Below are positions 4,194 through 31,349 of a DNA stretch of 64,000 nt, in pieces. The DNA lies in IMG/VR virus record IMGVR_UViG_3300033273_000374, positions 128,001-192,000 of that record. One strand, 5' to 3'. Every line of letters begins with the position of its first letter. Position 1 is the stretch's first letter. Both the position numbers and the translations under genes were made by a program. The DNA is from a virus. Taxonomy: Duplodnaviria; Heunggongvirae; Uroviricota; Caudoviricetes. The notes under the pieces are model-generated. The model saw only the letters and a list, made by a program, of their open reading frames with translations. It was not told where the DNA came from and made no database searches.

Positions 4194-6494
4194 CTATATT
4201 GTACAACTGTCACAGTCTTCTTCAAACTGCTCTTCGCTTGGTGCCAATAGTACAATCTGTTCACGCTCGTTGATGTCATCACCAGATCCATCATGCGTGT
4301 TAAAATAATACAACTGCTTGTGACCATATTTATAAGCAAGCAATAGGTGTTGTAACATAGCACTCATTGGGATCTTTTCATCTTCATAATGCACAGGATT
4401 GTAACTGGTGTTTACACTAATACCTTGGTCAATGTACTTTTGTAACACAGCCATGATCTTTAGATATCCTTCGGGTGATTTTTGATCCCATAACAAATCA
4501 TATTTGTTTTTTAGTCTTGGAAACCCTGGTACAACCTGCTTTAGTACACCATCTTTTGATTGCTTTACACTTACAAAACTGCGAGGTGGTTCAATGCCAT
4601 TGGTGCTGTTTGAGATCTGCGCACTTGTTTCTGCAGGCATCAGTGCCATCAGTGTGCTGTTACGAATGCCGTTTGTCTTGAGTTGTTCACGCAACCCTGC
4701 CCAATCCATGCGTTCAACATGCGGCACTAGTTCATCCACATCACGTTTGTAAGTTTGGTTAGGTGTAATACCTGCACCATACTTTGTTTCATGCACCAAT
4801 GGAATAGCACCTTGTTCTTGTGCTAGATCTGCACTGGCTTTTATCAAATAGTAACTCCATGCTTCTGCATATTTGTCAATGAGTTCCAAATTTGGATCGC
4901 CGTATGTGGTGTCATTCTTTGCTAAAAAGTATGCAAAATTTACAATACCAATGCCCAAAGGACGACGATTCATTGTGCTACGTTGTGCTGCTTTTACAGG
5001 ATAGTCCTGATATGTGAGCAATGCATCCAATCCACGCACTGCAAGTTCACAGGGCTTGGCAAAATCTTGTGGGTCTTTTATAAGTCCCCAATTGATTGCG
5101 CTGAGTGTACACAGTGCAATTTCGCCTTCTTCGTCGTTGAAGTCGTTGAGTGGCTTTGTGGGCAAGTTAATCTCGCAACACAAATTGCTTTGACGCACAG
5201 GTGCAAGTTCAGGTAAAAACGCACCATGATCATTTGCATGATCCACATTCATTAGATAGATGCGACCTGTGTTTTTGCGTTCTTCCATGAATGCACTGAA
5301 CAGCACTGCAGCCTTTACGGTCTTTTTACGGATGCTGGTTTTGCGTTCTGCTGCTTCATATAGTTCTTTGAACCGTTTTTGATCTGCAAAGAAAGCATCA
5401 TACAATCCAGGCACATCACTTGGTGAAAACAGTGTGATATCTCCGCCAGCAATTAGTCTTTCATAGAACAATTTTGAGAACTGAACTCCGTAATCCATGT
5501 GGCGTACTCTGTTGTCTTCCGTTCCTTTATTGTTTTTAAGCACAAGCAGATCTTCAACTTCGTAGTGCCAAATTGGATAGTACAGTGTGGCTGCGCCGTT
5601 TCGCACACCGCCTTGACTACATGATCTTGTAGCGGATTGAAACATCTTATAGAAGGGGATAACGCCTGTATGGTATGCATCTCCTGCTCGTATTGGCGAG
5701 CCCAACGCTCGTATTCTGCCTGCTCCGATGCCAATGCCGGCTTTTTGACTAACATATTTAACGATACTACTAGTAGTAGCATTAATACTATCCAAACTAT
5801 CATCTGTCTCAATAAGGACACACGAGGAGAACTGCTTTTGTGGAGTTCGTACACCAGCCATAACAGGAGTAGGAAGGCTGATATAGAATGTAGATATTGC
5901 GTCATAATAATCCTTCACCCAACGAAGTCGTGTTTCTTTTGGGTACTGCATAAACAGTGTTGCCGCAATGCACATGTATGCCATTTGCGGTGTTTCAAAG
6001 ATCTCACCCGTTACACGGTTCTTTACTAGATACTTTCCACGCCACTGTTCCATACCTGCATAGGTAAGGTCTTCGTCTCTATCATGCTTGATGTAACTGT
6101 TGAGCGTATTCCATTCTTCTTCGGTATACTCAGTTACTAACTCTTTTGTATAAAATCCTCTTTTGACATTTTTCTGCACTAGTGCATAAATGTGCCATGG
6201 TTCAAATTGACCATACACCATTTTGCGCAAATGGTAATTGATTAGTCTTCCAGCTACCCACTGATATCCTGGTGTTTCTTCACTGATTAGATCGGCTGCA
6301 CTTTTTATAAGTGTTTCTTGAATGTCTACTGTTGAGATACCATTGTAAAATTGCAATGAACTGCGAATCTCAACTTCACTAGCACTTACACCTGTAATCC
6401 CTTCGCAGGCGTAAAAAACTACTTTGTGTAATTTTTCTAGATCAATTGATTCTTTGTTGCCATTGCGTTTTGTAACTGTTAGTGCTTGGTTCAT
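4194..6494 (-). CDS. nrdA: Ribonucleotide reductase class Ia alpha subunit
   Basis: ATP cone (VTKRNG), FSSCVL, SNLCCEI, C-terminal CDSC; no intein. Confidence 0.98.
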   Translation of the reverse strand: MNQALTVTKRNGNKESIDLEKLHKVVFYACEGITGVSASEVEIRSSLQFYNGISTVDIQETLIKSAADLISEETPGYQWVAGRLINYHLRKMVYGQFEPWHIYALVQKNVKRGFYTKELVTEYTEEEWNTLNSYIKHDRDEDLTYAGMEQWRGKYLVKNRVTGEIFETPQMAYMCIAATLFMQYPKETRLRWVKDYYDAISTFYISLPTPVMAGVRTPQKQFSSCVLIETDDSLDSINATTSSIVKYVSQKAGIGIGAGRIRALGSPIRAGDAYHTGVIPFYKMFQSATRSCSQGGVRNGAATLYYPIWHYEVEDLLVLKNNKGTEDNRVRHMDYGVQFSKLFYERLIAGGDITLFSPSDVPGLYDAFFADQKRFKELYEAAERKTSIRKKTVKAAVLFSAFMEERKNTGRIYLMNVDHANDHGAFLPELAPVRQSNLCCEINLPTKPLNDFNDEEGEIALCTLSAINWGLIKDPQDFAKPCELAVRGLDALLTYQDYPVKAAQRSTMNRRPLGIGIVNFAYFLAKNDTTYGDPNLELIDKYAEAWSYYLIKASADLAQEQGAIPLVHETKYGAGITPNQTYKRDVDELVPHVERMDWAGLREQLKTNGIRNSTLMALMPAETSAQISNSTNGIEPPRSFVSVKQSKDGVLKQVVPGFPRLKNKYDLLWDQKSPEGYLKIMAVLQKYIDQGISVNTSYNPVHYEDEKIPMSAMLQHLLLAYKYGHKQLYYFNTHDGSGDDINEREQIVLLAPSEEQFEEDCDSCTI

Positions 6495-29784: not shown

Positions 29785-29814
29785 AAAAAAAAGCAGGCAA
29801 ATAAAATGCCTGCT
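29785..29814 (-). terminator. Rho-independent terminator closing micro-ORF operon
   Basis: AGCAGGCA-loop-TGCCTGCT followed by T-run. Confidence 0.85.
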
Positions 29815-29828
29815 CATCTTTACCGACT

Positions 29829-29885
29829 TTACTTTTTTGTTTTACGAGTAAAAAACTCTACTTCTTCGTCTGTGTAAGGATACAT
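29829..29885 (-). CDS. 18-aa micro-ORF MYPYTDEEVEFFTRKTKK
   Basis: TGATG coupling to upstream micro-ORF; ends before terminator. Confidence 0.45.
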   Translation of the reverse strand: MYPYTDEEVEFFTRKTKK

Positions 29886-29983
29886 CACACTGTGCCTGCT
29901 ATTAACACCGGTAGCAATAGATATCCTGCTTGAATTCCAAACAGTATACTACAACCTAATGCTGCTTTAAGTACATTCATCAT
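29885..29983 (-). CDS. 32-aa hydrophobic micro-protein
   Basis: MMNVLKAALGCSILFGIQAGYLLLPVLIAGTV; GGAG SD, ATGA coupling. Confidence 0.55.
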   Translation of the reverse strand: MMNVLKAALGCSILFGIQAGYLLLPVLIAGTV

Positions 29984-30108
29984 AGTGTCTCCAACCTTTT
30001 TGCTTCTGCATGGTAACCAAGACGAATAAGTTCCGCTGCTGCCTTAGCACGGCCTGCTCGTCCTAGCATTTCCCAAAATTTATTTGCACATTTTGTTACT
30101 GTTTGCAT
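29980..30108 (-). CDS. 42-aa small protein
   Basis: MQTVTKCANKFWEMLGRAGRAKAAAELIRLGYHAEAKRLETL; AGGTGG SD. Confidence 0.65.
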   Translation of the reverse strand: MQTVTKCANKFWEMLGRAGRAKAAAELIRLGYHAEAKRLETL

Positions 30109-30109
30109 T

Positions 30110-30244
30110 TTATATCCACCTTTTTGTATCATATGAATAACGCTTCATAATTTCTTCTACGTCATATGTGTTTTTTGCATATTGTAGTTCTTTTTCCATT
30201 GGAGTCATTGTTATTTTTTTCCAAAGTTTTTTAATGTTACACAT
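30110..30244 (-). CDS. 44-aa small protein
   Basis: MCNIKKLWKK...LQYAKNTYDVEEIMKRY; AGGAG SD. Confidence 0.6.
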   Translation of the reverse strand: MCNIKKLWKKITMTPMEKELQYAKNTYDVEEIMKRYSYDTKRWI

Positions 30245-30407
30245 TATAATCAACTCCTGCAACCAGTGGGTGTTTGTCCAAGATTTCACTGTATGCTTGT
30301 TGCCATTGATCGCCATATTCTATGCGATACCAGTCTTCAACATGTTTGCTACGGTCTGGTTGTGATCCAAAAACCGTCTGTAGATCATCAAACAACTTTG
30401 CAGTCAT
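30237..30407 (-). CDS. 56-aa small protein
   Basis: MTAKLFDD...WYRIEY; AGGAG SD. The longer 125-aa call runs through the RNA leader. Confidence 0.65.
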   Translation of the reverse strand: MTAKLFDDLQTVFGSQPDRSKHVEDWYRIEYGDQWQQAYSEILDKHPLVAGVDYNV

Positions 30408-30430
30408 TTTTGTTCTCCTATTAGTTTTTA

Positions 30431-30578
30431 GATGCTTGAGGAAAGCAATACCGCGGTCTCTTCCGCCGTCTCCACGATGCCTGTTTGCAGCACCACTTGT
30501 AAGGCATGGGATATGCCCTGGTCTTTCCCAGTGCCACTCATTTTTTCTGAGCTGAGGTCGCTCTGTGCAATGCACAAT
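30431..30578 (-). ncRNA. Candidate structured ncRNA / 5' leader with ~8 short hairpins
   Basis: GC-rich island directly after TATAAATA (30581-88); hairpins TGTGC, GAGC, CTGG, GGCAT, CTG, CGT, GCGG, TGCTT. Confidence 0.65.
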
Positions 30579-30580
30579 GT

Positions 30581-30588
30581 TATTTATA
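30581..30588 (-). promoter_or_regulatory. T4-type late promoter TATAAATA
   Basis: Exact T4 gp55 consensus in intergenic DNA. Confidence 0.75.
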
Positions 30589-30644
30589 ATACAATAAGTA
30601 GAAATTGTTGTCAATGATTAGATGTGCGTTAAAATAACGCAATG

Positions 30645-31349
30645 CTAAGCCAGTATCTTAGCGTCAATGTAAGGTATCATCTGTTCAACAAACAATTCAT
30701 GTCCACGTTCATTTGGGTGTTCGCCTCCGGCAAACACACTATCTCCATGTTGTGATCTTAACCAGTCGTGCATGTTGTTGTTACCCATAAATGTGTTATC
30801 AAATTTTGGATATACAACAGGGCTTAGGTCACCTTCATAACCTTTTGTTGGAGGAAGTGCATTGAATTGTACATAACGTGCACCATACTGTTTTAACAAT
30901 GCATTGGTGCTCATGCGAAGTGTAACGTCCCATTGCCTCTGATGTCCCAAACTGTGTTTGATCCATTCAACCACACTGTTTCTAAAACAAGCATCACCAG
31001 GATGTGGATTGTCATTGAATCTTACAAAGCCTGAATGAACCCAACGGTCTTCGTCATCATGATACCAACTCATTCTATCTATGCTGGTCCATGCAACTGC
31101 TATAAACAAATCTTCTCGTGGTGTAGGATTTTGTTGTATGTATTCGCATACAGTTTGCCATATGTATGTGTTACTACCACTGGGCTGGCCTCTGTTGTCA
31201 TAGGTTGCACCATAGTGCTGCGCCAGACGTCCAAGCCACACATGCTGTTCTCTGTAACTAATATTTTCGTGATGTTGATCCCAAGTTGCGTTGGGTGCAA
31301 CAAGTTCGCTGCCGTAGGTAAAACTGCAGCCTATACCTATTATGTGCAT
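30645..31349 (-). CDS. SGNH-like hydrolase/acyltransferase
   Basis: GCSFTYG, GSN, WTS.DR, HPNERGH. Confidence 0.6.
   Translation of the reverse strand: MHIIGIGCSFTYGSELVAPNATWDQHHENISYREQHVWLGRLAQHYGATYDNRGQPSGSNTYIWQTVCEYIQQNPTPREDLFIAVAWTSIDRMSWYHDDEDRWVHSGFVRFNDNPHPGDACFRNSVVEWIKHSLGHQRQWDVTLRMSTNALLKQYGARYVQFNALPPTKGYEGDLSPVVYPKFDNTFMGNNNMHDWLRSQHGDSVFAGGEHPNERGHELFVEQMIPYIDAKILA

Follow-up and report, generated by a model that had tools for sequence, protein, structure and literature searches.

A modular hairpin-array RNA leader at the head of microprotein operons in marine jumbo phages

Introduction

The stretch of DNA analysed here, hereafter the window, is 64,000 nucleotides (nt) long (positions 128,001 to 192,000 of IMG/VR virus record IMGVR_UViG_3300033273_000374) and is part of a 203-kb record estimated to be 57% complete. 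On its minus strand, at window coordinates 30588-30431 (read 5' to 3' with descending numbers), a promoter core of the T4 late type, TATAAATA, is followed by a series of RNA hairpins and then by the first of several very small open reading frames (ORFs). A preliminary description, made from the letters of the window alone, had noted these hairpins and proposed a riboswitch-like or thermometer-like leader or a processed small RNA. The locus raises the question of what such an RNA is and what it acts upon. The answer set out below is that of a noncoding RNA leader of a microprotein operon, which is a candidate translational operator of that operon.

Results

A conserved RNA structure supported by covariation

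Looking at the minus strand, we recovered all the sequence features of the preliminary description, whose coordinates are collected in Table 1. Read from the 5' end, they form a terminal hairpin (P0), an H-type pseudoknot with stems S1 and S2, a hexaloop hairpin (H1) abutted by a second hairpin (H2), a single-stranded segment (J1), a variable hairpin (P3), a spacer (J2) and a second hexaloop hairpin (H3) abutted by H4. The pairs H1-H2 and H3-H4 are the module that had been seen twice, and the comparison of homologs established this unit, a hexaloop hairpin plus a pyrimidine-loop hairpin, as a true repeat.

Homologs are numerous. An exact 19-mer across H1/H2 occurs in 26 other IMG/VR contigs, a degenerate H2 pattern in 75 and a pattern in which H2 was left free in 73, while the H4 motif alone was found in at least 120 marine metagenome contigs; the flanks of the homologs align across 110-190 nt. 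With the covariance model R1 the window scores 133 bits, and R1 detects the leader only once in the 203 kb of this genome. Because parts of H2/J1 or H4 were set in advance by the search patterns, their conservation is somewhat overstated, a bias which a protein-seeded set of loci (see below) offsets only in part.

The minimum free energy of the single sequence, -46.7 kcal/mol, is no better than chance (compare -44 ± 4.4 for shuffled sequences, z -0.61), and it is the comparative evidence, not the folding energy, that makes the hairpins real. In a MAFFT alignment of 42 distinct sequences, 93.7% of the cells of the 22 proposed pairs hold standard pairs, compared with 24-48% when the 3' partners were slid by 1-3 columns as a control, and 12 pairs are altered on both sides. 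In a set of 56 distinct sequences aligned with the model the values were 92.7% paired (at most 49% when slid) with compensatory changes in 19 of the 22 pairs; this set was fitted to the model and leans toward it, the MAFFT figure being the unbiased one. The preliminary description would have been refuted by a lack of covariation among homologs, and this covariation is strong. G-U pairs are frequent (in the model-aligned set, for instance, 17 sequences have UG at columns 64-109 and 15 have it at columns 60-113); on the opposite strand they would be A-C mismatches, and it is therefore the transcript of the minus strand that is under selection.

The same comparison separated the loop contacts that had been suggested. 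The complementarity CUCA/UGAG is a genuine pseudoknot stem (S2): the loop of stem S1 pairs with downstream sequence, as in an H-type pseudoknot, with 96.5% of the cells paired (22-35% when slid) and compensatory changes at three pairs. In S1, GAGC/GCUC becomes AAGC/GCUU in five sequences; in S2, C-G changes to A-U and U-A to C-G; and two members carry an inserted A as the partner of a U that is bulged in other members. In contrast, GGGA/UCCC showed no covariation either in a hand comparison of the homologs or in a mutual-information scan, the loop-loop contacts H1-H4, H1-H2 and H3-H2 showed no consistent compensation by the same two approaches, and the scan detected no tertiary covariation beyond the helices. 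The complementarity between the CCUC loop of H4 and the ribosome-binding site is weak and does not covary. Pairing of the H4 loop with the Shine-Dalgarno (SD) sequence amounts to -4.8 kcal/mol, compared with -3.4 for shuffled loops and -4.9 for cross-pairings between members, and is absent in several members. Sequestration of the SD by the H4 loop through a pseudoknot was rejected as unsupported, the complementarity being modest and equal in cross-pairings.

The segment is noncoding. In the window, the 125-amino-acid (aa) frame 30614-30237 is open from a TTG at 30614, but the frame of the downstream ORF has stops in 44 of 49 unique homologs, meaning that this read-through ORF is not conserved, and the lengths of the homologous leaders differ by non-multiples of three. 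The statement that the RNA lies outside the known Rfam families also held: Rfam 15 at gathering thresholds gave no match in the whole window, and in E-value mode the region 30300-30700 gave four weak matches of 13.7-17.2 bits (gathering scores 39-50; E 0.25-7.1), none of them credible. A scan for tRNA and tmRNA found none.

The leader stands 5' of a microprotein operon

The gene most often associated with the leader belongs to a family of 52-102 aa with the motif (W/Y)AKTEYxxDWQYAY, which we call AKTEY; it has at least 420 metagenomic members and neither a Pfam domain nor a name, and the copy in the window is divergent. AlphaFold2 predicted for the AKTEY protein a mere helix-loop-helix (predicted local distance difference test, pLDDT, 67), which offers too little for a fold search. 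When loci were retrieved with AKTEY only, 31 of the 35 IMG/VR loci carried a full-length R1 match (24-128 bits) ending at the start codon, and in one further locus the contig end truncates the leader; three (L208, L231 and L233; L numbers designate individual loci) had no leader by R1. Conversely, among 92 unique complete metagenome instances retrieved with H4, a hexaloop hairpin lies directly upstream of H4 in 82, and an SD, an ATG and an ORF of at least 30 aa follow H4, likewise in 82.

The spacing is tight. The distance from H4 to the ATG has a median of 26 nt in the metagenome instances (range 20-35); of the 46 unique IMG/VR sequences, 45 have 8-20 nt between H4 and the SD, the exception being L211 with 27 nt. 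The H4-SD spacer is free of G, the SD takes part in no conserved pair, and no terminator lies between the leader and ORF1. The position of the leader 5' of the operon is obligatory. Leader and first gene have evolved at very different rates, with a median identity to the window of 68% for the leader (nt) and 27% for the first ORF (aa); this far better conservation of the leader argues for a slowly evolving partner.

The transcription unit of the window holds five micro-ORFs, and the gene set across 68 operons is a mosaic. AKTEY was present in 60 of them by regular expression, which missed the divergent window copy; a GRxRAAAELxRxGYxxEAK family was found in 48, a 17-18-aa MWPYTxEE peptide in 38, DUF1127 (PF06568) in 23, DUF3563 (PF12086) in 21 and a YRSYC/SEFKH family in 17. 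No DUF1127 gene occurs in the operon of the window or in the 203 kb of its genome. Several microproteins end in ..NLRGWV (window 29832-30407, minus strand; L017 4839-5704; L212 1205-1900). In L028 a gene for a plastocyanin/azurin-type copper protein (PF00127, E 1e-17; 4800-5219) follows the micro-operon, and L031 has a look-alike ORF, judged by eye, about 850 nt downstream of H4.

Modular architecture of the family

The leader is modular, and hairpins are gained and lost freely among homologs. The invariant core is a hexaloop hairpin with an R-A-N-A-G-A loop closed by G-C and directly followed by H4, which is always last and nearly invariant (GGUAUUGCUUUCCUCAAGCAUC). Each leader has one to four hexaloop hairpins, usually preceded by a (U/A)GAC spacer, and this repetition of near-identical hairpins in variable number points to repeated binding sites and not to one compact aptamer. 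H2 is usually GGCAU/AUGCC, with the variants GGCGU/ACGCC, CGGAU/AUCCG and CGCAU/AUGCG; it is replaced or missing in L221, L224 and L213, and L227 also lacks it. H1 is missing in L212 and P3 in L031 and L044; P3, the pseudoknot and the 5'-terminal hairpin all vary across the family. The last of these exists in most homologs with unrelated sequence (TTGTTGC..GCAACAA and TGTACA..TGTACA, for example), so that the palindrome TGTGCA-T-TGCACA of the window (30564-30576) is more plausibly an RNA hairpin than a PhaR box. The natural minimal forms L213, L214 and L217 consist only of the pseudoknot, one hexaloop hairpin and H4. In divergent members J1 is UUAAAAG or another variant, and the loops of H2 and H4, AUCCC and UUUCCUC in the window, are AACCC, UGUCC, CUUUCCCAAAAA, UAACCAUAA or others elsewhere.

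The triplet GAC is twofold enriched in the leader (about 3.6 per 87 nt in window 30431-30565 and homologs), where it recurs at two kinds of place, the 3' half of hexaloops (AGAC) and the unpaired spacers ahead of hairpins (UGAC); it may be a repeated recognition element. Two other ideas about the hexaloop hairpin were abandoned. As a genome-wide operator it is not enriched (six found where three are expected, two of them in the leader), and resemblances to CsrA sites, boxB/N, ANTAR, K-loops, the signal recognition particle RNA and the sarcin-ricin loop were rejected on the loop consensus.

Promoter and phage context

The T4 late promoter has TATAAATA at -10, can dispense with a -35 element and depends on gp55. 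As had been noted, the leader follows such a motif and precedes the first ORF, and the motif is conserved in the family: (T/G)ATAAATA lies upstream of the leader in nearly every homolog, usually preceded by ..CTGTACTATT.., and (N)ATAAATA lies within 260 nt upstream in 83 of the 92 metagenome instances. Within the window TATAAATA occurs 7 times (4.1 expected), which is no significant enrichment. The sigma70-like -35/-10 pair that overlaps it in the window (Table 1) lacks its TTGACA in the homologs; judged by this overlap, the unit might also be readable by unmodified host RNA polymerase. An extended element ..GTAAG(N5-7)CTGTACTATTnTATAAATAnnnGTG.., longer than the classical T4 late promoter, was seen about 10-30 nt upstream of TATAAATA in L029, L035, L055, L064, L083, L235 and others, and at 30589-30606 in the window. 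It may be the late promoter of this jumbo-phage clade.

The carriers of the leader are jumbo phages of a marine clade related to T4. The DnaB-type helicase of the window's record is closest to those of the jumbo phages PA5oct, Atu_ph07, Phosso and XaC1 (about 48% identity), and the record also encodes a ribonucleotide reductase (RNR), a primase and a PolIII-alpha-like protein. CheckV puts the leader-bearing contigs, 86-205 kb long, at just 24-57% completeness (the records behind the window, L060, L037, L059 and L027), and being so large yet incomplete they imply genomes of about 350 kb; only one of these fragments carries a T4 gp23-type capsid gene.

Outside this clade the searches were negative. 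BLASTN with near and distant settings, run with the region and with one homolog, found no match in 50,697 phage records, and tBLASTN with the AKTEY protein found none in the phage records. In PA5oct, Atu_ph07, Phosso and XaC1 the best R1 matches were of 15 and 10 bits, away from the DUF1127 genes, and inspection of the regions upstream of DUF1127 in Phosso and Atu_ph07 revealed no hairpin-array leader. These two cultured jumbo relatives, which infect Alphaproteobacteria, have their DUF1127 genes behind short unstructured leaders (Phosso, L246 1400-1640; Atu_ph07, L247 1500-1700), and TATAAAT precedes the gene of Phosso. In representative bacterial genomes a loose pattern gave 120 loci among the matches listed, all at or below 25.5 bits with R1, which is the level of chance.

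Table 1. Features of the leader and its transcription unit in the window.
Feature	Coordinates	Strand	Evidence or remark
Sigma70-like promoter, TTGACA-17 nt-TATTAT, 11/12 matches	30586..30614	-	overlaps TATAAATA; window only
TATAAATA promoter core, T4 late type	30581..30588	-	sequence match and homolog conservation
P0, 5'-terminal hairpin UGUGC-AUU-GCACA	30564..30576	-	near the expected transcript start
H-type pseudoknot domain, 35 nt, AGAGCGACCUCAGCUCAGAAAAAAUGAGUGGCAC	30531..30565	-	compensatory changes; optional in the family
Pseudoknot stem S1, GAGC with GCUC	30563-30560 with 30552-30549	-	
Pseudoknot stem S2, CCUCA with UGAG-U-G	30557-30553 with 30540-30535	-	
Pseudoknot connecting loop, A-rich, AGAAAAAA		-	
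H1, hexaloop hairpin CUGG-GAAAGA-CCAG, type G-RANAGA-C	30518..30531	-	4/4 pairs compensatory
H2, GGCAU-AUCCC-AUGCC, abuts H1	30503..30517	-	99.6% paired; 4/5 pairs compensatory
J1, single-stranded UUACAAG	30496..30502	-	same in all 42 aligned sequences
P3, variable hairpin UGGUGCU-GCAAACA-GGCAUCG, optional	30475..30495	-	6/6 pairs compensatory
J2, spacer UGGAGACG, (U/A)GAC type	30467..30474	-	type precedes hairpins family-wide
H3, second hexaloop hairpin GCGG-AAGAGA-CCGC	30453..30466	-	98.7% paired; 4/4 pairs compensatory
H4, GGUAUUGCUU-UCCUC-AAGCAUC, abuts H3, pyrimidine-rich loop	30431..30452	-	most conserved element of the family
G-free A/C/U spacer, 11 nt, H4 to SD	30420..30430	-	
SD AGGAG (30419-30415) and ORF1 ATG (30407-30405)	30405..30419	-	
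ORF1, 56 aa, divergent AKTEY member with ..WYRIEYGDQWQQAY..	30237..30407	-	alignment of the family
Further micro-ORFs of the operon	29832..30244	-	about 44 aa; 42-50 aa, GRxRAAAEL..GY..EAK family; 32-aa hydrophobic peptide; 18-19-aa MYPYTDEE peptide
Intrinsic terminator ending the transcription unit	29791..29815	-	9-bp stem then T run

Discussion

We propose that the RNA is an uncatalogued cis-acting 5' leader, a translational operator of the microprotein operon that is bound by a conserved factor, and we give this reading a probability of roughly one half. It is favoured because the leader stands at the head of the mRNA with tight H4-SD-ATG spacing and has neither a terminator nor a stand-alone copy, and because near-identical hairpins are repeated and primary sequence is conserved in stems as well as loops. 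The TATAAATA promoter would give an mRNA of about 800 nt whose first 150 nt or so would fold into a string of independent helices: the 5' hairpin, the pseudoknot, one to four hexaloop hairpins, the optional GGCAU/AUGCC hairpin and H4. From the known extent of the 30S footprint, H4, ending 20-35 nt before the start codon, would lie at the 5' edge of the region that the 30S subunit covers. A conserved trans-acting partner, putatively a phage or host RNA-binding protein or the ribosome platform, would bind the repeated hairpins and H4 and so set the efficiency with which the first cistron is translated, and by translational coupling that of the rest of the micro-operon. The 5' hairpin and the pseudoknot would protect the mRNA from 5'-end-dependent decay.

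Several points weigh against this proposal. The partner is putative, as is the direction of regulation. To our knowledge the hexaloop fits no protein-binding consensus (CsrA GGA loops, boxB and ANTAR being those we compared). Nor does covariation support sequestration of the SD by the H4 loop. The three AKTEY loci that lack a leader mean that the gene is not strictly dependent on it, and the G-free, A/U-rich spacer would also suit processing by RNase E, which would release a separate RNA.

This last point leads to the main rival, a processed trans-acting small RNA that would be to phages what the Cuckoo/CcsR RNAs are to Alphaproteobacteria; we consider it possible, though clearly less probable than a cis-acting operator. 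A cut within the G-free spacer, made by RNase E for instance, would release the RNA, whose pyrimidine loops (AUCCC, UUUCCUC) would target the SD sequences of host or phage mRNAs, and co-transcribed RNA-binding proteins of the DUF1127 type could assist. In Rhodobacter the DUF1127 protein CcaF1 binds CcsR RNAs, which have anti-SD loops and are co-transcribed with it, and helps to mature them (PMC8034643). The frequency of DUF1127 and DUF3563 in the operons, the C-rich loops of H2 and H4, the single-stranded A/U/C-rich spacer after H4 and the conservation of the leader, so much better than that of the adjacent ORF, all agree with such an RNA. However, the loops are variable (AACCC, UGUCC, UAACCAUAA and others) and do not contain the defining CCUCCUCCC motif, no Rfam family matches below E = 0.25 or comes near its gathering score, and no DUF1127 gene lies in the 203 kb of the window's genome. 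Furthermore, the leader is always 5' of an ORF that starts 20-35 nt downstream, which is unexpected for a purely trans-acting RNA.

A bolder variant, which we advance as speculation, is that leader and microproteins make up one phage-encoded RNA-microprotein device, a ribonucleoprotein (RNP) with which the phage would redirect host translation or RNA decay in late infection. The hairpin array would then be a scaffold for AKTEY, the GRxRAAAEL family, DUF1127 or DUF3563, or for a universally conserved host machine such as the ribosome platform or the RNase E degradosome; the RNP would form after processing, and the whole could be a viral re-engineering of the bacterial DUF1127-Cuckoo stress module.

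That the 5' structure acts without a specific partner, either as a passive stabiliser of the late mRNA or translational enhancer, or as a thermometer that melts, is improbable. If a 5'-terminal hairpin of variable sequence in most members and an SD lying in an unstructured G-free stretch are what a passive role would predict, the near-invariant sequence of H2, H4 and the hexaloops, in stems and loops alike and next to proteins only about 27% identical, is left unexplained by it. The thermometer of the preliminary description meets a more direct difficulty, since the SD is paired in no conserved helix, unlike in the ROSE and fourU types, and lies in the unpaired spacer.

Still less probable is a riboswitch, the other leader type first suggested, in which H1-H4 would form an aptamer whose ligand controls translation of the operon. 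Unpaired nucleotides are indeed strongly conserved (the GAAAGA loops, UUACAAG, GGUAU), the RNA lies in a 5' untranslated region (UTR), and an optional peripheral pseudoknot and P3 recall some riboswitch classes. Yet the elements of the supposed core are dispensable, as the minimal forms and the members without H2 (L224, L227) or H1 (L212) indicate, P3 and the pseudoknot being missing in some members too. There is no closing P1 helix, no multi-helix junction and no tertiary covariation; neither a terminator nor an SD-sequestering alternative could serve as expression platform, the regulated microproteins have no metabolic link, and no Rfam riboswitch matches. Finally, the reading of the stretch as the N-terminal part of the 125-aa ORF, or as a chance GC-rich spacer, can draw on the open frame and the insignificant fold energy of the single sequence, but we discard it, since the frame is closed in nearly all homologs, its TTG lies upstream of the promoter core, and the segment has compensatory changes, non-triplet insertions and deletions, and conservation in hundreds of contigs.

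The leader adds to phage biology an abundant, unannotated family of structured RNA, present in hundreds of marine contigs, with a clear genetic partner in a microprotein operon mostly overlooked by gene callers. Few bacterial microproteins have a known role linked to RNA or signalling; DUF1127 and DUF3563 do, and their presence in jumbo phages behind a conserved leader suggests that microprotein/RNA modules are deployed late in infection. The leader is small and modular, with natural variants reduced to three elements, which makes binding and reporter work straightforward, and the covariance model is ready for annotating such operons in metagenomes.

How does the leader compare with known systems? 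The nut boxB hairpins of lambda type have GAAAA or GAAGA pentaloops, and CsrA binds arrays of GGA hairpins. With both the leader shares repeated short purine-loop hairpins that would serve as protein sites, one of them near the SD. Unlike boxB, its loops are hexaloops in which the first base varies (G, A or C) and the conserved part is ..A-N-A-G-A-C, and unlike CsrA/RsmA sites many of its hexaloop hairpins lack GGA, for example UGAGAAAAGACUCA and CAUGCAAAGACAUG (L224, L207, L053, L219, L236 and L238). The T4 gene 32 leader combines a 5' pseudoknot with an operator that controls translation, an A/U-rich tract without structure to which gp32 binds cooperatively. Both are mRNA leaders of T4-type phages that start with an H-type pseudoknot, with control in cis (proposed here for ours), whereas in the present family four or five conserved hairpins follow, the pseudoknot is optional and the genes encode microproteins; the comparison is one of architecture, not of sequence. 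The gene 32 leader is also mentioned in PMC10690425, which in 2023 catalogued 8495 unnamed structured-RNA candidates (csRNAs) from IMG/VR. Our leader may be among these csRNAs. Like them, and like phage cis-regulatory motifs such as GP20-a (RF02991) and GP20-b (RF03003), it is a conserved structure immediately ahead of a phage gene that came to light only through covariation in metagenomic phage contigs, but it matches neither GP20 motif nor any other deposited in Rfam.

The Cuckoo/CcsR RNAs of the CIN1 loci of Alphaproteobacteria (Rfam alpha-r14 type) are likewise UTR hairpin RNAs with pyrimidine-rich anti-SD-like loops and very small proteins (PMC8034643). They have double-hairpin units, duplicated, DUF1127 is frequent in the phage operons as well, and those of Sinorhizobium meliloti share the position 5' of the gene, coming apparently from the 5' UTR of a DUF1127 gene (PMC8034643). 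In contrast, the phage leader has no two CCUCCUCCC loops; it adds the G-RANAGA-C hexaloop hairpins, the pseudoknot and the TATAAATA promoter, has no Rfam match, and is most often partnered by the unnamed AKTEY family instead of DUF1127. In its working the leader is closest to a phage mRNA operator, like that of T4 gene 32, or to the DUF1127-Cuckoo module, and it is a member of neither. Judged by its absence from Rfam, it is a new RNA family within the common theme of a UTR hairpin RNA plus a microprotein.

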